DNA of 64,000 bases from Bacteroidota bacterium (GCA_009786185.1 WQTS01000138.1:1652-65651); one strand, 5' to 3'; positions 1 to 58,207 are shown, counted from the stretch's first letter. Translations and numbers: made by a program. Notes: a model not told the origin generated them from the letters alone.

Positions 1-232
1 TTCCACTTTGCCGTAACCCACAGGAAGTTCATACCATTTTAATATGCCAACTCTCGGTTTGCTCATTTTAACTAAAGCCACATGCACATTGGCTATGAGC
101 TACCCTACCTGTGCATGTTGCAAGTTTGGTTTTTAACGGTGCGCCTGTTTTCCTTTTTTGAGGCATTGCCTTAACTCGGCTTTTCTTTTATTTGGCATGT
201 TACGGTTAAAAAACAAAACTTGCCGGTTTTAG
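1..232 (-). ncRNA. Conserved structured 5' leader element, copy A (runs off the left edge; its downstream gene is outside the window)
   Basis: Near-identical to 3153-3425 and 4941-5215 (ttccactttgcc...caggaa...ctcatttt...cctgtgc...ttttaacggtgcgcctgttt...aaaacttgcc); TACTTTTG promoter motif at 239-246 on minus strand. Confidence 0.65.
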
Positions 233-238
233 TCGCTG

Positions 239-246
239 CAAAAGTA
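239..246 (-). promoter_or_regulatory. Bacteroidetes sigma-A -7 element (TACTTTTG) upstream of leader copy A
   Basis: caaaagta on + strand = TAnnTTTG on minus, directly upstream of the conserved leader. Confidence 0.6.
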
Positions 247-260
247 GTAAAAAATCAAAC

Positions 261-295
261 ATAAATCCGATTTTTTGCTACAATAAATCCGATTT
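261..295. promoter_or_regulatory. Tandem 13-bp direct repeat ATAAATCCGATTT, candidate operator
   Basis: Identical copies at 261-273 and 283-295 (22-bp period) between leader A promoter and the divergent HTH gene. Confidence 0.5.
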
Positions 296-346
296 AATCC
301 TACATCTTTTTCAACCATTTATTTATCAATAAATTAATTTTACAAA

Positions 347-682
347 ATGAAAAAAAACATCGGGAAAATTATTGAAAAGCACGTAAAAGCTAAAGAGGGC
401 TTGTCTGTTGCTAAATTTGCCAAGCTTATTGATAAAGACAGAAGCACGACTTATGATATCTTTACACGGCAAAGTATTGATACGGAACTGTTGGAAAAAA
501 TAGGACAGGTTTTGGAATATGATTTCTTTCAAGAATTGTTGCACCCTGAAACGATACAAAAAATCATTCTTAAGAATTCAATTGTAAATAAAATTTACGT
601 AGAATTGGATATCTCTGAAAAAGATATTGAAAGCCTTGGAATTAAAGATAAAATTGTGCAAATTATAAAAAAGGAAGAATAA
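347..682 (+). CDS. XRE/Cro-type helix-turn-helix transcriptional regulator
   Basis: NIGKIIEK...GLSVAKFAKLIDKDRSTTYDIFTRQSIDTELLEKIGQVLEYDFF matches the Bacteroidetes XRE pattern (SIDTELL..I...L.YDFF). Confidence 0.8.
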   Translation: MKKNIGKIIEKHVKAKEGLSVAKFAKLIDKDRSTTYDIFTRQSIDTELLEKIGQVLEYDFFQELLHPETIQKIILKNSIVNKIYVELDISEKDIESLGIKDKIVQIIKKEE

Positions 683-722
683 AAAGAGAAGAGATAAAAT
701 AGAAGTTGCTTGAGAAAAGCCT
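681..722 (+). repeat. 42-bp direct repeat, left copy
   Basis: aaaaagagaagagataaaatagaagttg(c/t)ttgagaaaagcct also at 1537-1578, 1 mismatch. Confidence 0.85.
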
Positions 723-790
723 CCTGTTTTGTGCAAAAAGCACCCATTTTAGAAAAAACAGCTTAACCCTTGACAAACGGTTTTTTGAAA

Positions 791-860
791 TATATATTTG
801 CGGCGCAATAAAAAACCTAATTTTCACCTAATCAAACAAGAAAACACCTTAGTAGCAATG
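791..860 (+). repeat. Left inverted repeat flanking the Y1 transposase; contains TATATTTG promoter motif
   Basis: 811-860 is the exact reverse complement of 1380-1429; imperfect extension out to 791/1448. Confidence 0.9.
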
Positions 861-901
861 AAATACGACTAACAAACTAATCTAATTACCTAATTTTTTT
901 T

Positions 902-1357
902 ATGCAAATCGAATACAACAATCTCTATATCCACTTCGTGTTTACAACCTTTAATAGAACTAAAATTATTCTTGAAAAACATCGTGAACGTATTGAAAAA
1001 TACATTACTGGAATTGTTAATAATAAAGGATGTCATTTGTATCGCATCTATGCTAATGCTGAACATATCCATTTTCTCGTTTCTCTTAATCCAAAAATTG
1101 ATACTGAAAGTTTAGCTACTATTGTTGCAGACAGTTCTGAAAGGTTTATTAATGAAAACAAATTATGTGCCGGATTTTTTAATTGGCAGCAGTCTTGTTC
1201 TGCATTTTCCGTGTCCAAAGGAGATGTAGAAAAAGTTTGTAAATATATTATGAATCAAAAAGAGCATCACCAATCTGCTGATTATGAACAAGAGCATGAA
1301 CAATTTCTAAAATTTTATCAACAGACAATTCAAATACAAAAAAAATCATGTAATTAG
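902..1357 (+). CDS. tnpA: IS200/IS605-family Y1 (HUH) transposase, TnpA/RAYT-like
   Basis: YIHFVFTT strand, HUH motif EHIHFL, FNWQ..SAFSVS, catalytic Tyr in KYIMNQKEHH. Confidence 0.85.
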   Translation: MQIEYNNLYIHFVFTTFNRTKIILEKHRERIEKYITGIVNNKGCHLYRIYANAEHIHFLVSLNPKIDTESLATIVADSSERFINENKLCAGFFNWQQSCSAFSVSKGDVEKVCKYIMNQKEHHQSADYEQEHEQFLKFYQQTIQIQKKSCN

Positions 1358-1379
1358 ATTAAATTTGTGCGTGTCATCC

Positions 1380-1448
1380 CATTGCTACTAAGGTGTTTTC
1401 TTGTTTGATTAGGTGAAAATTAGGTTTTTATTACGCTGCAAAGATATA
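1380..1448 (-). repeat. Right inverted repeat; TATCTTTG promoter motif points antisense into the transposase
   Basis: Reverse complement of 791-860; caaagata at 1439-1446. Confidence 0.9.
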
Positions 1449-1536
1449 CCGAGACACCCAACTCCGCAACACAATAAATTAATTAAATGAATATCAGAAA
1501 ATTATTTTTTTAGCCTAAAAAACCGCACAAAACAGA

Positions 1537-1578
1537 AAAAAGAGAAGAGATAAAATAGAAGTTGTTTGAGAAAAGCCT
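1537..1578 (+). repeat. 42-bp direct repeat, right copy
   Basis: Matches 681-722 with 1 mismatch. Confidence 0.85.
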
Positions 1579-1698
1579 TATTATTTTATTGCCCCGCAAG
1601 ATCATACGTGGAAAATATCGCGAAACAGAAGTTTTGCAGAGAAATTAATCATGCTAATCTTATTAATCTTGATAAAATCATGGTTCAGACAATCATAG

Positions 1699-2874
1699 TT
1701 AAGACAATAACAAACATTCATCCCACTCCGGCTCCATTTCATAATGATAGCTAAGTAGCGCCAAGCCAATGCCGGAGATACCGGTTAGTAATCCGTAATC
1801 ATTTACCCATACAAATTCGCCATCCTGCGTGTCAAAAGCTTTATAACCGGCCAAACCGTCTTCAAAAGTAGCCATTTCTAAGGTTTGGTTAAACCAATAA
1901 TCTGCTGCGTTTTTAAATTCAGGTAATTTGGTGTTCCACCACATCCGGTAAAAAATATGCCCCATGCCGGCAGCGCCGTGACATAATCCTGCATCAGAAA
2001 CAAAATTATCTGCCAAGTTTCTTCTATGTGAAGCAGCATATAATAATATTTCTGTTGCCTTGTTTATCCAGGCATTCTCTTTCAAAATCGCACCTGCCTG
2101 ATATAAGGCGGAAGCAATTCCTAAATCACCGTAGCACCAACTTAAACGACTCTTATAAATGGTTGGGGTACTTTCAAGTGCAAGGCTGGAAAAATAGCTA
2201 CCGTATTTATCTTTGTCAATTTCTTGGGCAAGTATATATTGTACGGTTCCCCGCAATAATGTTTCTATTTTTTCTTTATCCAACCCCTCAATTTTATATA
2301 GCTTTGATAAAATTGCTACAATGCTTGCCATGCCATGCGACAGAGAAGTATTGTATACCGGTACGTTAGTATCCCCAAAAGGAGATATCCATTTCAAAGC
2401 TCCGTCTTCTTGCGGGGTACTTATTTTTGTTAAATCTTCTAAAAATTGATTCAACACTGCAATTAATTCTTTTCTCTTGGCAACTCTTTTAGTAAAATAT
2501 AGCGCTACGCCTACGCCGCCATGCAAGAAATCATAAGCGTTTTCTTGCATTGTTTTTTTAATCGCTTTTTCCAGATAGTCATCAAAATCTTCTAGAAAGG
2601 CATTTGTATCATAATTAATTATTCCTCTTTGACTTAAATATTCATATAACCAGCCAATGCCTGCTAATCCGTCGCAATGGGTTGCCGAAAAAACTTCACC
2701 GGTTAGTTTTTCTCCCAAAACTTGATGTAGATATGACAGCCTGTCTTGTGATATTTTTTTGTACGAAAACAGTTCACTGCACAAAAGTATTTGCCCGCCA
2801 AGCCCTGTTAACATACCTATTTTAGGGGCAATTTCAGATTTTAGAGTTTGGGCGATCTCGTCAATCTTTTTCAT
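1699..2874 (-). CDS. lanC: Lanthionine synthetase C-like cyclase, paralog 1
   Basis: GLAGIGW, DFLHGGVG, SLSHG (catalytic His), WCYGDLG and LCHG (Zn ligands), GLLTG..GIGL, C-terminal WDECLLLS. Confidence 0.92.
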   Translation of the reverse strand: MKKIDEIAQTLKSEIAPKIGMLTGLGGQILLCSELFSYKKISQDRLSYLHQVLGEKLTGEVFSATHCDGLAGIGWLYEYLSQRGIINYDTNAFLEDFDDYLEKAIKKTMQENAYDFLHGGVGVALYFTKRVAKRKELIAVLNQFLEDLTKISTPQEDGALKWISPFGDTNVPVYNTSLSHGMASIVAILSKLYKIEGLDKEKIETLLRGTVQYILAQEIDKDKYGSYFSSLALESTPTIYKSRLSWCYGDLGIASALYQAGAILKENAWINKATEILLYAASHRRNLADNFVSDAGLCHGAAGMGHIFYRMWWNTKLPEFKNAADYWFNQTLEMATFEDGLAGYKAFDTQDGEFVWVNDYGLLTGISGIGLALLSYHYEMEPEWDECLLLS

Positions 2875-2903
2875 TTTATTATCCTTATGCTATGCAATAT
2901 TTC

Positions 2904-2943
2904 AAAAAAAATGATGTTGCTCAATTTTTTTGAGCAACATCAT
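2904..2943 (-). terminator. Intrinsic terminator between precursor and lanC-1
   Basis: 14-bp stem atgatgttgctcaa/ttgagcaacatcat followed on minus strand by a U-tract. Confidence 0.75.
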
Positions 2944-2952
2944 GAGAAGTAA

Positions 2953-3129
2953 TTAGTCCACTTTTGTTGGAACCGGCGGCATACAGGTTGGGTACTGTAT
3001 AAGCGTACATATTTTGCCTGTAGCAGGGCACTCTGCAGTAGCGTAAGTTGTCATACCACCATAAATTTTACCCGGCTCATCTAATTGAGCAATAGCTTGT
3101 TTGTTTAATTGTAATTTTTTCATAGACAT
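2953..3129 (-). CDS. lanA: Class I lanthipeptide-type precursor, 58 aa (not in ORF track)
   Basis: Manual translation MSMKKLQLNKQAIAQLDEPGKIYGG-MTTYATAECPATGKICTLIQYPTCMPPVPTKVD*; same leader as 4732-4917 and 7739-7963; core has 3 Cys, 7 Thr. Confidence 0.88.
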   Translation of the reverse strand: MSMKKLQLNKQAIAQLDEPGKIYGGMTTYATAECPATGKICTLIQYPTCMPPVPTKVD

Positions 3130-3152
3130 TTAATTTTAAAATATAAAACTCA

Positions 3153-3425
3153 TTTCCACTTTGCCTAAGCCCGCAGGAAGTTCATATCATTTTAATATGA
3201 CAACTCTCGGTTTCTCATTTTAATTAAAACTACTTGCATATCGGTTATGAGCTATCCTACCTGTGCAGGTTGCAAATTTAGCTTTTAACGGTGCGCCTGT
3301 TTCCTCTTTTTTGAGGCGTTGCCTTAGCTCGGCTTTTCTTTCATTGGCATGTTACGGTGTAGAAGCAAAACTTGCCTGTTTTAATTTGCCCAAATTTAAG
3401 CGCTTGGGCAAGTATTTGTTGCAAC
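3153..3425 (-). ncRNA. Conserved structured 5' leader element, copy B
   Basis: Lies between TATCTTTG promoter (3430-3437) and precursor start; several stems with compensatory changes relative to other copies. Confidence 0.7.
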
Positions 3426-3429
3426 GTGG

Positions 3430-3437
3430 CAAAGATA
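3430..3437 (-). promoter_or_regulatory. -7 promoter element TATCTTTG upstream of leader B
   Basis: caaagata on + strand matches the TAnnTTTG consensus on minus. Confidence 0.6.
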
Positions 3438-3458
3438 AGAAAATATATTAAATCACAG

Positions 3459-4637
3459 TTAAGACAGTAATAAACATTCATCCCATGTGGGATCCGTTTC
3501 ATAATAATAGGTAAATAGTGCTAAGCCGATGCCAATTATACCTTCTAACAACCCATAATTATTTATCCAAACTTCGTTCTTATCTTGTATGCTTAAAATT
3601 TTAAAGCCGGCTAAGCCATCTTCAAAAGTGGCTTTCTTTAAGGTTTGTTCAAACCAATAATCTGCGGCATCTTTAAATTCAGGCAATTTTGTATTCCACC
3701 ACATCCGATAAAAAATATGCCCTACGCCGGCAGTGCCATGACACAATGCTACATCTATAACATTATTTTCTTCTAAATTTCGTCTTTGGGTGGCGGCAAA
3801 TAAAAATATTTCTAAAGCTTTCTCTACCCAGGCGCTTTCTCGCAAAACTGTACCTGCCTGATATAAAGTGGAGGCAATGCCCAAATCGCCGTAGCACCAT
3901 GCCAATCTGCTTTTAGTAATGAAAGGCATGCTTTCTAATGCAAAACTGGTGAAGTAACTTCCATATTTGTCTTTATCAATTTCCTGTGCAAGAATATATT
4001 GTACAGCCCCTCGCAATAGCATTTCCGTTTTTTCTTTATCAATTCCTTCTATTTCATACAGTTTCGATAGTATAGAAATAATACTCGACATGCCATGCGA
4101 TAGTGCAATATTATACCCAGGCCCTGTTATATGTGTGGTCAAAAGAGAGCTCCATTTTATAGCTCCATCTTCTTGCTTGATACTTAATTTTTCTAAATCT
4201 TCTAAAAATTGATTTAATACGGCAACCAGCTCTTTTTTCTTCTTTACTCTTTTAGAAAAATAGAGTACAATGCCCACGCCGCCGTGCAGAAAATCATATT
4301 CGCCTTTTAACATGAAGTTTTTAAGCGCTTCTGCCAAACAGTCATCAAACGCTTCCAAAAGTATGTTAGTATCGTAGTCTATCATCTTTTTTTGGCTTAA
4401 ATATTCATATAACCAACCTATGCCCGCTAAGCCGGAAGCATGCGTAAAAGGAAGAACTTCTTCCGCTAATTTTTCTTCTAAAATATTGTGTAAATGCAAC
4501 AACCAATTTTGTGAGACTTTTTTGTGTTTAAACAATTCGCTGCAAATAAGAAGTTGCCCACCAAGCCCCGACAATAATTCCGTATCGGGTACTATTTCAG
4601 ATGTTAAAATCTGAGTTATCTCGTCTATTTTTTTCAT
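3459..4637 (-). CDS. lanC: Lanthionine synthetase C-like cyclase, paralog 2 (start reassigned to MKKIDEI)
   Basis: ALSHG, WCYGDLG, LCHG, WDECLLLS; start set by alignment to paralogs; the longer ORF extension runs into the terminator hairpin. Confidence 0.92.
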   Translation of the reverse strand: MKKIDEITQILTSEIVPDTELLSGLGGQLLICSELFKHKKVSQNWLLHLHNILEEKLAEEVLPFTHASGLAGIGWLYEYLSQKKMIDYDTNILLEAFDDCLAEALKNFMLKGEYDFLHGGVGIVLYFSKRVKKKKELVAVLNQFLEDLEKLSIKQEDGAIKWSSLLTTHITGPGYNIALSHGMSSIISILSKLYEIEGIDKEKTEMLLRGAVQYILAQEIDKDKYGSYFTSFALESMPFITKSRLAWCYGDLGIASTLYQAGTVLRESAWVEKALEIFLFAATQRRNLEENNVIDVALCHGTAGVGHIFYRMWWNTKLPEFKDAADYWFEQTLKKATFEDGLAGFKILSIQDKNEVWINNYGLLEGIIGIGLALFTYYYETDPTWDECLLLS

Positions 4638-4669
4638 TATTTTCTTAACATATACTACCATCATTACAG

Positions 4670-4720
4670 TAAAAATGAAAATTTGTCTTTTAGCACACAC
4701 TGTGTGCTAAAAGACAAATT
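4670..4720 (-). terminator. Long hairpin/terminator between precursor and lanC-2
   Basis: ~19-bp stem aatttgtcttttagcacac / gtgtgctaaaagacaaatt, U-rich tail on minus strand. Confidence 0.7.
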
Positions 4721-4731
4721 CCTTCTAAAAA

Positions 4732-4917
4732 TCAAACAGTACACCCTACTGTTTTCGTGGTTACTGGGATTACACAGCACGCAGGAGTGTCAGTTAGAGG
4801 ACATGGCTTATAACTTTGGTCTGAGGCTATTGTTTTATCAGTTCCTCCATAAATTCTACCCGGCTCATTCAACTGAGCAATCGTTTGTTTGTTTAATTGT
4901 AATTTTTTCATAGACAT
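4732..4917 (-). CDS. lanA: Class I lanthipeptide-type precursor, 61 aa
   Basis: LQLNKQTIAQL (LxLxKx5L) leader ending IYGG; core TDKTIASDQSYKPCPLTDTPACCVIPVTTKTVGCTV has 4 Cys, 8 Thr, 2 Ser. Confidence 0.88.
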   Translation of the reverse strand: MSMKKLQLNKQTIAQLNEPGRIYGGTDKTIASDQSYKPCPLTDTPACCVIPVTTKTVGCTV

Positions 4918-4940
4918 TTAATTTTAAAATACAAAACTTG

Positions 4941-5215
4941 TTTCCACTTTGCCGTAGCCCGCAGGAAATGCACATTGCTTTAATGTGACAACGCTCGGGT
5001 TGCTCATTTTAATCAAAACTACTTGCACATTGGCTATAAGCTATCCTACCTGTGCATGTTGCAAGTTTGGTTTTTAACGGTGCGCCTGTTTTCCTCTTTT
5101 TTGAGGCATTGCCTTAGCTCGGTTTTTCTTTTATTGGCATGTTACGGTTAAGAACAAAACTTGCCGGTTTTAATTTGCCCAAATTTAAGTGCTTGGGCAG
5201 GCACTTGTTGCAACG
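4941..5215 (-). ncRNA. Conserved structured 5' leader element, copy C
   Basis: Aligns over its full length with copy B; stems conserved, C(UACG)G tetraloop near the 3' end. Confidence 0.7.
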
Positions 5216-5254
5216 GAGTAAAATTAAGAAAATATATTTAATATTAAATCACAG

Positions 5255-6442
5255 TTAAGACAATAGCAAGCATTCATCCCAAGCAGGATCCATTTCATAG
5301 TAATAGGTAAGCATTGCCAAATTGATTCCGGCGATGCCTTCTAAAAATTCGTATTTGTTTATCCATCTTGGTTCTCCTTCCGGCATTTGCATTTCAAAGG
5401 CTTTAAAGCCGGCAACCCCATCTTTAAATGTAGCCATTTTTAATGTTTCTTGAAACCAATAATCTGCAGCATCTTTAAACTCAGGCAATTTTGTATTCCA
5501 CCACATACGATAAAAAATATGCCCAATGCCGGCAGTACCGTGACATAATCCTGCATCTTTAACCAAATCATCCTCTAAATTTTGTCTCATAGTAGCAGCA
5601 AATATGAATATTTCCAATGCTTTATCTATCCAAACATTTTCTCTTAGCGCTTTACCCGCCTGAAATAATACGGAAGCAATTCCTAAATCGCCGTAACACC
5701 ACGCTAAACGACTTTTACTAATATGGGAAGTGCTTTCTAATGCATAGTATGTGAAGTAACTACCATATTTATTTTTGTCAATCTCTTGGGCAAGGATATA
5801 TTGTACAGCTCCTCGTAACAATTTTTCTGTTTTTTCCTTATCAATTCCTTCTATTTTATACAGTTTTGACAGTATTGAAACAATACTCGACATACCATGC
5901 GATAAGGAGATATTATATACTTGATTATTAGTATGTCTGAGCAAAAAAGAGCGCCATTTTATGGCTTCATCTTCTTGTTTGATACTTATGTGTTCTAAAT
6001 CTTCTACAAACTGAGCCAGTACCGGTATAAGTTCCTTTTTCTTTGCAACTCTTTTGGTAAAATAGAGTACAACGCCTACCCCGCCATGTAAAAAATCGTA
6101 GTTATTTTCTAACATAAAGTTTTTTAGCGTTTTCTCAAGATAAATATCAGGATCTTCTAAAATAATATTTGTATCGTAATTAATTATTTTTCTTTGACTT
6201 AAATATTCATAAAGCCAGCCAATACCGGCTAAACCGCCACAATGGGTAAAAAGAAAATCTTCGTTAGATAGTTTTTCTTCCAAAATATTATGCAAGTGCG
6301 ATAACCAATCGTGCGATACTTTATTTTGTAAAAACAGTTCGCTGCAAGTGAGTATTTGTCCGCCAATTCCGGATAATAAGCCTAAACCGGAAATAGTTTC
6401 AGAGGCTAATATTTGGGTGAGTTCATCTATCTTTTTTTTCAT
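5255..6442 (-). CDS. lanC: Lanthionine synthetase C-like cyclase, paralog 3
   Basis: SLSHG, WCYGDLG, LCHG, WDECLLLS motifs. Confidence 0.92.
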   Translation of the reverse strand: MKKKIDELTQILASETISGLGLLSGIGGQILTCSELFLQNKVSHDWLSHLHNILEEKLSNEDFLFTHCGGLAGIGWLYEYLSQRKIINYDTNIILEDPDIYLEKTLKNFMLENNYDFLHGGVGVVLYFTKRVAKKKELIPVLAQFVEDLEHISIKQEDEAIKWRSFLLRHTNNQVYNISLSHGMSSIVSILSKLYKIEGIDKEKTEKLLRGAVQYILAQEIDKNKYGSYFTYYALESTSHISKSRLAWCYGDLGIASVLFQAGKALRENVWIDKALEIFIFAATMRQNLEDDLVKDAGLCHGTAGIGHIFYRMWWNTKLPEFKDAADYWFQETLKMATFKDGVAGFKAFEMQMPEGEPRWINKYEFLEGIAGINLAMLTYYYEMDPAWDECLLLS

Positions 6443-6501
6443 TGTTTAATTTTCAATTAAGTATTCTCTTAAGTCTATTAATTACGCAAATCGCTCTAAA
6501 A

Positions 6502-7527
6502 TCATGGTTCAGACAATACTAAGCGAAAACTAAAAATGTCGCTAACAACTGGTCCCATTCCACCAACGTATTCATGATGCCAACCCTCACGAGCCGAAAT
6601 ACGGCAGGTTACCGTAGAATAGAAGGCACCACCACCACGAACTATACGTGGAATAATATTTTCTATGGTGTACTGTGGATTTGTCTGCGGAACATTAGTA
6701 TAAATTCTGTACCACCCATCTAGGCACCACTCCTTTGCATTTCCACTCATATCGTAAATACCCAATTCATTTGGTTTTTTTGTTCCCACCGGATGGAGTT
6801 TCCTATTGCTATTATCACGATGCCAAGCCACTTCATCAACATTATTGCTGCCGCTGTATTTGTATCTCATACTTTGGTTGCCTCCACGTGCCGCATATTC
6901 CCACTCCGCTTCCGTAGGTAAACGATAGGCTTTACCGGTAGTTAGCCTCAATTCTCTAATAAATTTTTGTGCATCATCCCAACTCACTCCGTGAACTGGC
7001 ATATCATCTCCAAAATAAAAACTTGGATTGCTGCCCATAAGAGATATCCACTGTTTTTGTGTAATAGGATATATGGCTATTTTAAAACTACTTAATGTAA
7101 CCGGATGTGCCGGAAGTTCCTGCTCATAACATTCATCATCGCCATCATTGCAACCCATTATAAATGTTCCACCTTCAACCAGTACCATTTTTGGTTCGAT
7201 GGAAGGATCGTAAACTGTTACAATAGATCTAGCTGTTTTGTTTCCATCTTGAGTAGTAGCAGTAATTGTAGTTTTACCAAATGAAATGGCGGTTATTGTG
7301 CCGTTATGCACTGTTGCTACATTGTTATTGCTACTTTCCCAACTCACCTTTTTATTGGCAGCATTTTCAGGTAGTATAATGGCTGCTAAGATTTCCGTTT
7401 TTCCAATTCCACCAATGAATAAAGTGCTTGGTTCAAGTACAATACTTGTAACAGATTCTTTTTTACAAGAAACTGCAACAATCAACAACAACGCTGCAAT
7501 AAACAATCTTAAAATTGTGCTTTTCAT
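6502..7527 (-). CDS. Lipoprotein with Ig-like (Big_2) domain and FGE/SUMF1-type domain
   Basis: Lipobox AVS-C; Big_2 motif KVSWESSNNNVATV..GTITA...GKTTITATTQDG; FGE motifs RLPTEAEWEYAARGG, PNELGIYDMSGN..EW, RIVRGG, FRLV. Confidence 0.85.
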   Translation of the reverse strand: MKSTILRLFIAALLLIVAVSCKKESVTSIVLEPSTLFIGGIGKTEILAAIILPENAANKKVSWESSNNNVATVHNGTITAISFGKTTITATTQDGNKTARSIVTVYDPSIEPKMVLVEGGTFIMGCNDGDDECYEQELPAHPVTLSSFKIAIYPITQKQWISLMGSNPSFYFGDDMPVHGVSWDDAQKFIRELRLTTGKAYRLPTEAEWEYAARGGNQSMRYKYSGSNNVDEVAWHRDNSNRKLHPVGTKKPNELGIYDMSGNAKEWCLDGWYRIYTNVPQTNPQYTIENIIPRIVRGGGAFYSTVTCRISAREGWHHEYVGGMGPVVSDIFSFRLVLSEP

Positions 7528-7594
7528 GATAAATAGGGTTCATTGTGTTTTTATATTATTTAAAAAAATTGATCATAACTGTCTGGTTTTTAAA

Positions 7595-7693
7595 AACTCT
7601 GATAACTCTGATTGAGCGTGATAACCTTTAAAAAAGCATAAAAACAATGCATTAATAATTAGAGATCTGCTAAATCAGTATTATCAGAGTTCT
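7595..7693. repeat. Dispersed palindromic (REP/MITE-like) element, 'aactctgat' family
   Basis: Ends aactctgataactctgattgagc ... aatcagtattatcagagtt; related element at 22903-22996. Confidence 0.65.
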
Positions 7694-7738
7694 CATTGAT
7701 AGGCTATTAAACTAACCTCTTAATACAGTTTTAAGTAA

Positions 7739-7963
7739 TTACCGAGCAGCAGTCGGACATGCATAAGTAGGCCATTCACAGTAACAAGTACAATTTGTTT
7801 GGGCTGTTTCTATGCCACAGTAATTTTGGGTAGGCTTTACACACGCTGCTACTCCCCACACTTGCAGTACAGTTGTTTTATATCCATGAGCTTCACCTCC
7901 GTGAATTTTGTTCGGTTCGTTTAACCGCGCAATCGTTTGTTTGTTTAATTGTAATTTTTTCAT
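7739..7963 (-). CDS. lanA: Class I lanthipeptide-type precursor, 74 aa (start reassigned to MKKLQLN)
   Basis: MKKLQLNKQTIARLNEPNKIHGG leader; core EAHGYKTTVLQVWGVAACVKPTQNYCGIETAQTNCTCYCEWPTYACPTAAR has 6 Cys, 8 Thr. Confidence 0.88.
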   Translation of the reverse strand: MKKLQLNKQTIARLNEPNKIHGGEAHGYKTTVLQVWGVAACVKPTQNYCGIETAQTNCTCYCEWPTYACPTAAR

Positions 7964-7992
7964 AGTATTGATTTTAAAAAAATATACTCTAA

Positions 7993-8107
7993 TTTCCACT
8001 TTGCCAAAGCCCGCAGGAAATTCATATCATTCTGATATGACAACCCTCGGATTCCTCATTTTAACTAAACCTTAACGCACATCAGCTATGAGGCATCTTA
8101 CCTGTGC
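7993..8107 (-). ncRNA. Conserved leader element, copy D (3' module only)
   Basis: Matches the ~115 nt nearest the precursor in copies A-C; homology ends after cctgtgc at 8107. Confidence 0.65.
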
Positions 8108-8829
8108 TAATTCGCGGTTTTCGTTTGCCTGAATTTTAAACGCATCAGGCAATGCAATAATTTGGTATAATTTCTGTTTATTTGCATCCTGAGGTGCAGA
8201 TTTGCAGGGAAAGTATTAAGTGTTTTTGCAAAAGATAAATACTTCCCTGCGGGGCACCTTGGTTATTGCCGGTACGGTCGGAGCACGTCTCGTACCAACT
8301 TAGCGTATTCGAAATTGTGTTTTTTCAAAAATCCACATATTTATAATGAATAAATAAGCGAATAGAGAAATAGAAGAGAGGAAAGATTTTATAATCAACA
8401 CAGATTGCGCTTCATGCAATAAGAACTTATCTGCAAAAATACTATGCAAGTATGCAATGGTTTTATTAAACGTATCGGCTGCTTTCATGCGGTCGAATAT
8501 ATATGTAACAAAATCGCGGGCAAGATACGAAAAAACATCTTCAAAATGATTTATGAACATTTTTTTGTTATCGTTTTTGTTTTCAGTATATTATATATTG
8601 CTTTTTGGGAATAAAATGAATATACTGTTATTCTTGCAACAATTTGTTGGCTAACTTTTGCAGCAAATAGAATTTTTACAGTATTTCGCAGCACCACGAA
8701 ATAAATAAAAATATTATGAATAAAAAATAAGCCCTTAAAAAGGTGAACAAGCAATCTATTTTTTTCTATTTTTGCCACGCAAAATTACATAGGTATAAAA
8801 ACGTATATTTAATTTAATATCAGCATATT

Positions 8830-10389
8830 ATGACAATGCAAGAAAAAATCAATGAGCTTTTAAAACTGCGAGAAACTGCAAGATTGGGAGGCGGTGAAAA
8901 ACGTATTGAGAAACAACACGCCCAGGGCAAATTCACAGCACGCGAGCGTATCCTCATGTTTTTAGATGAGGGTAGTTTCGAAGAGTTTGATATGTTTGTT
9001 ACCCATCGCTGTACAAATTTTGGTATGGAAAAAGAAAAATATTTATCCGATGGCGTGGTAACAGGATATGGCACCGTGGAAGGTCGTTTGGTATTTGTGT
9101 ATTCGCAAGACTTTACCATATTCGGAGGCTCGCTTTCGGAAACAGTTTCCAATAAAATTTGTAAAGTGTTGGATCAAGCCATGAAAATGGGCGCTCCGGT
9201 AGTAGGCTTCAACGATTCTGGTGGTGCGCGTATTCAAGAAGGCGTAAATAGTTTGGCAGGGTATTCCGAAATTTTCCAACGCAATATTTTGGCTTCGGGC
9301 GTTATTCCGCAAATTTCCGCTATTTTCGGTCCTTGTGCCGGCGGCGCTGTGTATTCGCCTGCGCTTACCGATTTTATCATGATGGTGAAAAATACCAGTT
9401 ACATGTTTGTTACCGGTCCGAAAGTAGTGAAAACGGTTACTAATGAGGATGTTACCGTGGAAGATTTGGGCGGCGCTATGATGCACTCCTCAAAATCGGG
9501 TGTAGCGCATTTTGCGGTAGATAACGAAGAGATCGGCATTGCGCAAATTCGCAAATTGTTGAGCTATGTACCTTCTAACAATATGGAAGAAGCTCCGTTT
9601 AAACCCACAAACGACCCAATTAATCGTTTAGAAGATACTTTAAATCAAATTATTCCCGACAGTCCCAACAAGCCTTATGATGTTAAAGATGTTATTTTAA
9701 GTATTGTAGATGACGGTGGTTTTTTTGAAGTTCATGAAAATTATGCAAAAAACATCGTGGTAGGTTTTGCCCGTTTCAATGGAATGTCGGTGGGAATTGT
9801 TGCCAACCAGCCCAAATATTTAGCCGGTGTTTTAGACATCAACTCTTCTCGCAAAGGAGCGCGCTTTATTCGTTTTTGCGATGCCTTTAATATTCCGATA
9901 GTTACGTTGATAGATGTGCCCGGTTTCTTGCCCGGAACCCAACAAGAATACGGCGCATTAATTCTTCACGGCGCTAAACTATTGTACGCGTATGGCGAAG
10001 CTACCGTTCCAAAAGTAACGGTTATTTTAAGGAAAAACTATGGCGGCGCATATTGCGTAATGAGTTCCAAACATTTACGTGGAGATATTAATTACGCTTG
10101 GCCCTCTGCCGAAATTGCAGTGATGGGTGAAAAAGGCGCTGTAGAAATTTTAAGCGGAAGAGAAATCGCCGCTATTGAAGACCCTGAAAAACGCGCAGAA
10201 TTTATCGCTGAGAAAGAAACCGAATACCGCACGGCATTTGCCAATCCGTATATCGCAGCACGTTATGGTTATATTGATGATGTGATTGAACCGCGCAACA
10301 CTCGTTTCCGAGTAATTCGTGCGTTAGAATCATTGAAAAACAAACGCTTGGAAAATCCGGCGAAAAAACACGATAATCTCCCGTTATAA
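8830..10389 (+). CDS. mmdA: Methylmalonyl-CoA decarboxylase alpha / acyl-CoA carboxylase carboxyltransferase
   Basis: [42 protein letters not shown]; followed by an OadG-family gene. Confidence 0.9.
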
Positions 10390-58042: not shown

Positions 58043-58207
58043 AATGATTTAATGTGTTTTTTAATAAGCCTACTCTTTAGGATTTTCGGCATCCTCCAAA
58101 ATTAACAAGCGCAAAAATACACTTTATAATATACATAGAGATTTTTTTTGAAAAAATGTGGCTTAATCAAATATTTCTGCTACTTTCGCGTTTTTCGTGA
58201 AATACCT

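Follow-up and report, generated by a model that had tools for sequence, protein, structure and literature searches.

The window, a stretch of 64,000 nucleotides (nt) from a Bacteroidota bacterium (GCA_009786185.1; positions 1652-65651 of WQTS01000138.1, contig C138), is part of a 2.84 Mb genome in 144 contigs and contains four copies of an element that very probably belongs to a family of transcribed, structured leader RNAs linked in cis to the genes they precede. These genes encode small, antibiotic-like peptide precursors with double-glycine leaders. Covariance models built from the element recover it in other genomes and metagenomes, where it again precedes precursor genes, and at least six helices and two pseudoknots of its fold covary. 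Tentatively, the leader may also subject the precursor genes to post-transcriptional control by a shared factor.

The four copies (A–D) are all on the minus strand, where a reading of the sequence alone (the sequence-only reading) had placed them, and are found by both BLAST and covariance models. With copy B as query, BLAST matches copy C at 88.0% over 299 nt, copy A at 86.2% over 253 nt, and copy D at 81.4% over 140 nt. Three models describe the parts of the element: R1 for the core (181 positions, 47 pairs), R2 for the module next to the start codon (M3), and R3 for an optional 5′ module (M0). The copies are composed as follows.

54-233, minus strand: core of copy A (helix P0, M1 arm, and M2 hairpin with pseudoknot); R1 match at C138:1705-1884, 199.4 bits.
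1-69, minus strand: start-proximal module M3 of copy A; R2 match at C138:1649-1720, 83.2 bits, extending 2 nt past the window start.
239-246, minus strand: putative promoter -7 box of copy A, TACTTTTG, adjoining the element; the same position is filled in 19/61 homologues.
3206-3385, minus strand: core of copy B (P0, M1, M2); R1 match, 175.1 bits.
3151-3222, minus strand: module M3 of copy B; R2 match, 92.6 bits.
3379-3426, minus strand: 5′ pseudoknot module M0 of copy B, beginning with the palindrome GUUGCAAC; R3 match, 54.3 bits.
3430-3437, minus strand: putative promoter -7 box of copy B, TATCTTTG, adjoining the element; position class -103 to -95.
4995-5174, minus strand: core of copy C; R1 match, 185.7 bits.
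4939-5010, minus strand: module M3 of copy C; R2 match, 80.6 bits.
5168-5215, minus strand: module M0 of copy C; R3 match, 56.7 bits, with an imperfect promoter box (TAATTTTA).
8047-8124, minus strand: M2 domain of copy D alone, with a short linker in place of the M1 arm; partial R1 match, 49.1 bits.
7991-8062, minus strand: module M3 of copy D; R2 match, 91.5 bits.
8118-8159, minus strand: module M0 of copy D; R3 match, 26.7 bits, E 0.004.

The location given earlier for copy D stands, but its end had been set too early: the M0 module at 8118-8159 lies beyond that end and belongs to the copy, which has no long M1 arm. The gene downstream of copy A is past the left edge of the window. Between copies B and C the element is 87.6% identical, compared with 88.4% for the adjoining leader-peptide coding part, 73.1% for the LanC-like genes and 50.8% for the core-peptide part, in agreement with the earlier observation that the element is far better conserved than the precursor cores.

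Elsewhere in the genome BLAST brings the number of copies to nine, and the covariance model adds a tenth, more divergent copy on contig C123; a further R1 match (19.9 bits, E 0.43) was disregarded. Among 61 related genomes searched by BLAST, six including the source genome contain the element. Other homologues were sought by scanning two collections with a 21-nt pattern taken from the most conserved stretch. One genome per species yielded 11 loci, seven in metagenome-assembled genomes (MAGs) of Bacteroidales/Lentimicrobiaceae and four that are chance matches in unrelated phyla, and metagenome contigs yielded 63 loci, five of which are chance matches as judged with the model. The element is also present at about 58 further loci from MAGs and metagenomes. 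In 83 sources R1 reaches E<=0.01 with 75 matches, of which two are weak and fall within chance loci (L027, E 0.0054; L031, E 0.0095). The chance loci (L023, L027, L031 and L033 from genomes; L043, L051, L074, L079 and L084 from metagenomes) have no or only a weak R1 match and were set aside. Removal of exact duplicates left 66 distinct core sequences, and 12 fragmentary or divergent loci and 6 truncated loci were left out before construction of the seed alignment (A3).

The RNA family is taxonomically narrow and restricted to one group of gut Bacteroidales, because R1 finds it in 7/151 genomes of the family (the source genome included) and 2/22 genera, but in 0/150 other genomes of the order, drawn from 149 genera. 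DNA sequencing runs containing 95% of the words sampled from the stretch are labelled termite gut metagenome.

The alignments support a predicted modular fold of about 180-275 nt, composed of the optional M0, the core (P0, M1, M2), and M3 next to the start codon. The core is closed by helix P0 (UUAAAACC with GGUUUUAA), at whose junction the M1 arm and hairpin P4 meet. M1 is a long, near-continuous arm corresponding to the 21-bp stem of the sequence-only reading, and ends in a three-way junction with two small hairpins. A pseudoknot forms in M2 between the P4 loop, CUCAU, and AUGAG of the 3′ tail; AUGAG belongs to a segment previously listed as conserved, which now has a pairing partner. An upstream open reading frame (ORF) starting at this AUG, or a protein-coding role for the element, was considered and rejected because the frame is not conserved, with one-base length differences between AUGAG and CCGAG shifting it between copies, and because the AUG gives way to other letters where the partner it pairs with differs.

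In a MAFFT alignment of 48 sequences, 89.4% of cells at the paired positions of the core can pair, compared with 28-42% when the partners are slid, and changes on both sides occur in 23/49 pairs, compared with 10-13 for slid partners. The corresponding values in a model-fitted alignment of 75 rows are 87.7% versus 32-43%, and 48/53 pairs versus 21-27. None of 500 shuffles attains the observed values in either alignment, although these controls are imperfect, the structure being derived from the same sequences and one alignment being fitted to the structure. Run unguided, RNAalifold selected the pseudoknot stem itself, one pair of which is C-G in 19 sequences, U-A in 10 and G-C in 8. Parsimony on a FastTree phylogeny of 58 rows gives at least 94 compensatory events in 33/53 pairs, compared with 29-39 events for slid partners. 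The earlier view that the stems covary is therefore upheld, both for the long stem (P1/P2) and for the variable hairpin P6 described below. The strand call made from G-U pairs is also borne out, to a moderate degree: paired positions contain 250 G-U and 113 A-C cells, and pairing is 87.7% compared with 83.7% on the opposite strand, a bias that moderately favours the minus strand.

M0 is an optional 5′ H-type pseudoknot preceded by the palindrome GUUGCAAC. In 31 sequences 90.6% of its cells are paired, compared with 20-46% for slid partners, and two of its pairs have 8-9 compensatory cells each. M3 is present in all nine copies followed by L1a-type lanthipeptide leaders (below), and consists of a CCGNG/UNCGG pairing, the variable hairpin P6, a two-base-pair mini-hairpin with a tetraloop, and UUCC...GGAA, with 89.2% of cells paired versus 17-57% for slid partners. 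Changes on both sides are seen in 5/6 pairs of P6 and 2/2 of the mini-hairpin, and CCGNG/UNCGG has three compensatory cases; the UGYGG segment, taken at first for a near-invariant internal loop of the 3′ hairpin, thus more likely pairs with the upstream CCGNG. The outer UUCC/GGAA stem of that hairpin is conserved as described, but it never varies and so gives no covariation signal either way. In the source genome the M0 and M3 models match only these leaders.

Promoters of the Bacteroidetes contain the -7 element TAnnTTTG, and this box occurs at two fixed places relative to the 21-nt pattern: 56-62 nt upstream, where it abuts the core, or 95-103 nt upstream, where it abuts the extra 5′ module. 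It is exact in 40/61 sequences with enough flank, and most of the others are one letter off. Counts per 10-nt bin are 22 and 18 at the two places, 5 beside the first peak, and 0-3 nearly everywhere else. Because the box lies at fixed positions abutting the element, the predicted transcription start is most likely just ahead of it. The boxes reported directly ahead of copies A and B are indeed there (TACTTTTG, 246 to 239; TATCTTTG, 3437 to 3430). An 8-bp palindrome, GTTGCAAC, at 3417-3424 and 5207-5214 (minus strand) and in most homologues with M0, is nearly invariant, lies right at the predicted transcription start and outside the covarying stems, and may be a candidate DNA operator.

Spacing to the start codon is similarly constrained. 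The M3 module ends 27-32 nt before the ATG in 24/27 homologues, and the distance of 23-29 nt to the first precursor ATG given previously for the visible copies was reproduced. Terminator-like hairpins directly follow precursors B and C.

2911-2943, minus strand: terminator-like hairpin right after precursor B and ahead of the LanC-like gene; 14-bp stem, then a T run.
4679-4721, minus strand: terminator-like hairpin right after precursor C; 20-bp stem, then a T-rich tail.

The main transcript is therefore predicted to be short, probably with a leader (up to about 275 nt) that is longer than the coding part (180-230 nt). These hairpins stand between precursor and enzyme genes, and the element is in the leader of the unit, an arrangement compatible with a processive antitermination RNA (put or EAR type) that would carry RNA polymerase past the hairpin behind the precursor gene and on into the LanC-like or FGE-like gene. 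Such a role is very unlikely: no Rfam antitermination RNA matches, many copies are in other arrangements with the next gene in four cases being lipoprotein, secreted-protein or enzyme-like, and the fixed AUG spacing points to translation rather than elongation.

The regularity of these features also bears on whether the element has any function. Copies within the genome are 86-89% identical and the adjoining leader-peptide coding part is equally conserved, as would follow from recent cassette duplication, gene conversion or a mobile repeat. Compensatory changes are however distributed across genomes and metagenomes, the element is more conserved than the neighbouring LanC-like genes, and orientation, promoter position and AUG distance are constant among copies (orientation and spacing in 10/10 within the source genome, unlike a miniature inverted-repeat transposable element). 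No terminal repeats or random contexts were seen in the sequences inspected. A non-functional repeat is thus disfavoured and barely credible.

In the source genome each of the ten copies immediately precedes a small ORF that encodes a double-glycine leader. NF038153 (class I lanthipeptide leader L1a) matches nine of the ten ORFs, with scores at or slightly above its cut-off of 22 bits, and these make up all but one of the 10 NF038153 matches in the genome. Those in the window are:

2953-3129, minus strand: precursor gene after copy B, with a double-glycine leader; NF038153 lant_leader_L1a, 22.1 bits (cut-off 22).
4732-4917, minus strand: precursor gene after copy C; NF038153, 26.0 bits.
7739-7963, minus strand: precursor gene after copy D; NF038153, 25.1 bits.

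Among homologues, 58 copies have at least 330 nt of downstream sequence, and in 46 of them a small ORF carrying a double-glycine-type motif comes next (three of these look doubtful by eye), so the link to precursor genes drawn in the sequence-only reading extends beyond the window. The other 12 comprise two with truncated precursor remnants, one in which a second module separates the element from the precursor, three elements ahead of lipoprotein or secreted-protein genes, one ahead of a larger enzyme-like ORF, and five truncated or divergent elements (four of them excluded from the seed alignment). The precursor gene breaks off after 19-21 codons at two metagenome loci (L066 and L093) whose leader is complete; such copies have decayed but retain the RNA.

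The leader peptides downstream of the element belong to several unrelated double-glycine families. Conversely, seven other genomes of the family with lanthipeptide-type leaders contain no R1 match, and the upstream regions inspected look unrelated. Because these genomes are without R1 while RNA-bearing relatives have other leader types, the RNA appears tied to the double-glycine precursor genes of one lineage and not to lanthipeptides as such. The proposal of a cis-regulatory RNA dedicated to precursors of ribosomally synthesised and post-translationally modified peptides (RiPPs), lanthipeptides in particular, thus holds for a structured leader on the transcribed strand ahead of precursors but not for lanthipeptide specificity. 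The tenth lanthipeptide-type precursor of the genome (G000 C134:31820-31906, minus strand) is preceded by another conserved leader, of a second type, and this stretch is fused upstream of M0, M2 and M3 in two relatives (L018, L102).

The window copies match no known RNA family, in keeping with the initial failure to relate them to a riboswitch or ribozyme. Rfam 15 covariance models give no relevant match at E<=10 in window positions 1-9000, positions 3125-3445 have nothing but a 14.5-bit chance snoRNA match, and T-box models have no match in 1-9000. Across the whole window the sole gathering-level match is the motif DUF805b at 58067-58099, away from the element. There it is on the minus strand, scoring 39.8 bits (gathering score 35.6), with a promoter-like box just upstream and, 24 nt downstream, an ORF for a 68-aa Cys-rich lipoprotein; a second stand-alone DUF805b is on contig C67, ahead of a similar 70-aa ORF. 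Four stand-alone copies in the genome have a downstream ORF and lie just after promoter-like boxes, and the genes that follow encode small Cys-rich lipoproteins and other small or secreted proteins.

DUF805b (RF02914; with its sister motif DUF805, RF03081, in clan CL00115) is connected to the present leaders in that it replaces M3 as the start-proximal module in some relatives. It is an H-type pseudoknot ending about 20 nt before the AUG, where M3 would otherwise be. Membership was assigned at 35.6 bits or more with a hairpin and 3′ pseudoknot of the consensus type GCC-GAAAA...GAGUAGGC; two alternative 3′ modules score 44.8 and 43.2 bits, four more score 23.6-32.6 bits, and the tenth copy of the source genome scores 23.2 bits against DUF805. 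The M3 modules of the window copies have no match to DUF805b at E<=10 and so are not detectable members, although M3 has the same strand order and, read by eye, a similar A-rich, AGU-containing loop before the last strand. The distance to the AUG is 19-24 nt for stand-alone DUF805b, 19-25 nt for the DUF805b-type module in leader relatives, and 27-32 nt for M3. M0, M1 and M2 have no counterpart in DUF805b.

In the literature searched, supplementary files not covered, no description of a function for DUF805b was found (the name occurs in one unrelated paper), nor anything on such a leader in work on lanthipeptide, RiPP, bacteriocin or Bacteroidetes leader RNAs. Term look-ups in PMC2864571, PMC5737381 and one bioRxiv preprint likewise gave nothing on such a leader. 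The closest parallels are the Downstream-peptide and glnA motifs, which, in the passages of PMC2864571 consulted, are conserved, structured and pseudoknotted 5′ leaders directly upstream of short ORFs, described by comparative genomics before their function was known. The present RNA has no sequence or model similarity to them, is far larger and modular, has no ligand indicated, and precedes ORFs for secreted double-glycine peptide precursors. The core is a new RNA family within a known category, that of structured cis-acting leaders, and is joined in some members to a known orphan motif.

In the proposed mechanism the element would constitute the modular, pseudoknot-rich 5′ untranslated leader of the precursor mRNAs. 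Transcription would begin a few bases after the TAnnTTTG box, such that the fold would begin essentially at the first transcribed base, and the leader would act in cis and after transcription, on the stability or translation of the mRNA. A short transcript, terminated mostly at the hairpin behind the precursor, would gain a structured 5′ end that resists 5′-end-dependent decay. RNase E/G is 5′-end dependent, and because the genome encodes it such an end would be expected to matter; no RNase J is over cut-off (61.5 versus 400 bits) and RNase Y was not found over its cut-off in this genome, which is 96% complete. These last two results weaken an alternative in which the fold blocks a 5′-3′ exonuclease in the manner of an exonuclease-resistant RNA, to which its three-way junction and loop-to-tail pseudoknot are topologically similar. 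The conserved three-dimensional surface of the leader could further be read by a shared trans-acting factor, protein or small molecule, that tunes translation, so that unlinked precursor genes would respond together. The occurrence of the same folded RNA at the start of many precursor mRNAs suggests that the scattered genes share one RNA-level control. The complexity of the fold and its restriction to one gene class support factor-responsive control, which is proposed here as a serious possibility that falls somewhat short of likely.

Several observations weigh against that proposal. The narrow taxonomic range means that part of the conservation reflects short divergence, and most homologues were obtained with a single 21-nt pattern, making the invariance of that stretch a matter of ascertainment. 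Domains are dispensable: copy D and two relatives from another genus are without M1, three relatives have M1 only, and many have no 3′ module, a pattern of loss easier to reconcile with stable folds that can stand in for one another than with a single aptamer. Conservation is no higher in unpaired than in paired columns (0.79 versus 0.85, outside the stretch used to find homologues), and a ligand pocket is therefore not indicated. No site of the terminator/anti-terminator type is present on the minus strand inside the leaders. Partition-function folding predicts the start region to be unpaired with probability 0.57, compared with 0.46 for the leader, a comparison that is silent on ribosome-site masking.

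Much of this would be expected of a constitutive stabiliser or translation enhancer that senses nothing, in which stacked folds shield the short precursor mRNA from RNase E/G, possibly provide a ribosome standby site, and would leave precursor far in excess of the enzymes. In both promoter classes the fold sets in at the predicted transcription start, its modules can be missing or exchanged, and the small pseudoknot DUF805b is used alone, post-promoter, 19-24 nt before the AUG of four other genes. RNase E/G is the nuclease present, with neither RNase J nor RNase Y over cut-offs, the hairpins behind precursor genes predict short transcripts, and loops are no more conserved than stems. Stabilisers at the 5′ terminus of mRNAs, such as the ompA 5′ stem-loop, are simple hairpins; the present leaders resemble them in having structure from the predicted transcript 5′ end in an organism with RNase E/G. 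However, a single 5′ hairpin would suffice for that purpose, whereas the present fold retains six or more covarying helices and two or three pseudoknots over 180-275 nt, and M0, M1/M2 and M3 are confined to precursor leaders of one gene class and are unused by other genes of the genome. Passive protection is considered the main competitor of factor-responsive control, and somewhat less likely.

A small-molecule riboswitch, with M1/M2 as the aptamer and M3, DUF805b or a bare spacer as alternative translational expression platforms, would have the usual layout of a conserved core with variable 3′ modules, and the covariation-supported junction and pseudoknot and the linkage in cis to one functional gene class are also appropriate. 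It is nevertheless improbable: either core domain may be absent, the terminator scan reveals no switching helix and folding of the start region is silent on one, conserved unpaired bases are not in excess, and such diverse peptide genes have no obvious ligand in common.

Peptide-coding regulatory RNAs such as RNAIII with hld and Pel with sagA also carry a small peptide gene in a transcript whose structured non-coding part exceeds the coding part. The large pseudoknotted fold and the length of the leader relative to the gene could by this analogy indicate a dual-function transcript acting in trans, or else a self-cleaving or processing RNA. Both are very improbable, as no known ribozyme family in Rfam matches and no conserved candidate cleavage site was identified; unlike the single copies of RNAIII and Pel there are ten paralogous copies per genome, and nothing points to action in trans.

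A more far-reaching version of factor-responsive control, which is speculative and on balance unlikely, is that the M1/M2 core is a receptor RNA of a new, large and pseudoknotted class (acting as a riboswitch or as the RNA partner in a dedicated RNA-protein switch) that places unlinked, hypervariable precursor genes under one post-transcriptional signal, with DUF805b-type pseudoknots as a general output module of Bacteroidales leaders without a Shine-Dalgarno sequence. Initiation in Bacteroidota is not led by Shine-Dalgarno sequences, and to our knowledge control of ribosomally made peptide natural products has been described almost only for transcription and for the precursor-to-enzyme ratio. 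Here a large RNA fold backed by covariation marks the precursor genes themselves, ten per genome, at unlinked loci and with varied tailoring enzymes. If functional, the fold would help to locate precursor genes in metagenomes of Bacteroidales, supply a candidate part for producing such peptides in Bacteroidota, and place the orphan motif DUF805b in a biological context for the first time; if the receptor-RNA version is true, it would define the first RNA-defined regulon for ribosomally made natural products. The element is in any case a well-defined new target for work on large RNAs of unrecognised function.

The genes adjoining the leader-precursor units in the window include enzymes and a putative regulator.

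1699-2874, minus strand: LanC-like cyclase gene downstream of precursor B; PF05147, with two more at 3459-4634 and 5255-6442; 128-135 bits.
6502-7527, minus strand: lipoprotein gene with Big_2 and FGE-sulfatase domains, downstream of precursor D; PF03781 152 bits, PF02368 54 bits.
347-682, plus strand: small Cro/C1-like helix-turn-helix (HTH) gene, divergent from copy A; HTH_3 15.7 bits, below cut-off.

Behind 7/10 precursor genes, at 6502-7527 and six other loci, the gene that follows encodes not a LanC-like cyclase but a lipoprotein of ~340 aa with a Big_2 and an FGE-sulfatase domain. Weak matches of the EgtB, OvoA and PvdO type suggest that this protein may be an unusual tailoring enzyme outside the cytoplasm. 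A LanB-type dehydratase is encoded by a single gene on another contig, for nine or ten scattered lanthipeptide-type precursors and at least three LanC-like genes, and the C39 peptidase domain occurs in two full-length transporters, one encoded on the contig that carries the tenth leader copy (LanB and transporters: C34, C123, C126).

Genes of the Cro/C1 HTH type are immediately upstream of 6/10 leader loci, five of them divergent (the others are at L004, L016, L020, L021 and L022); three of the HTH neighbours at the five other loci are over the Pfam cut-off. These small proteins probably provide local transcriptional control, in which case the leader shared by the loci would add a second layer of control common to them all. 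Within window positions of about 681-1590, an IS200-like Y1 transposase gene (902-1357; PF01797, 69.6 bits) has on either side one arm of a ~40-nt inverted repeat (about 822-861 and 1381-1420) and one copy of a ~40-nt direct repeat (about 683-722 and 1540-1580).

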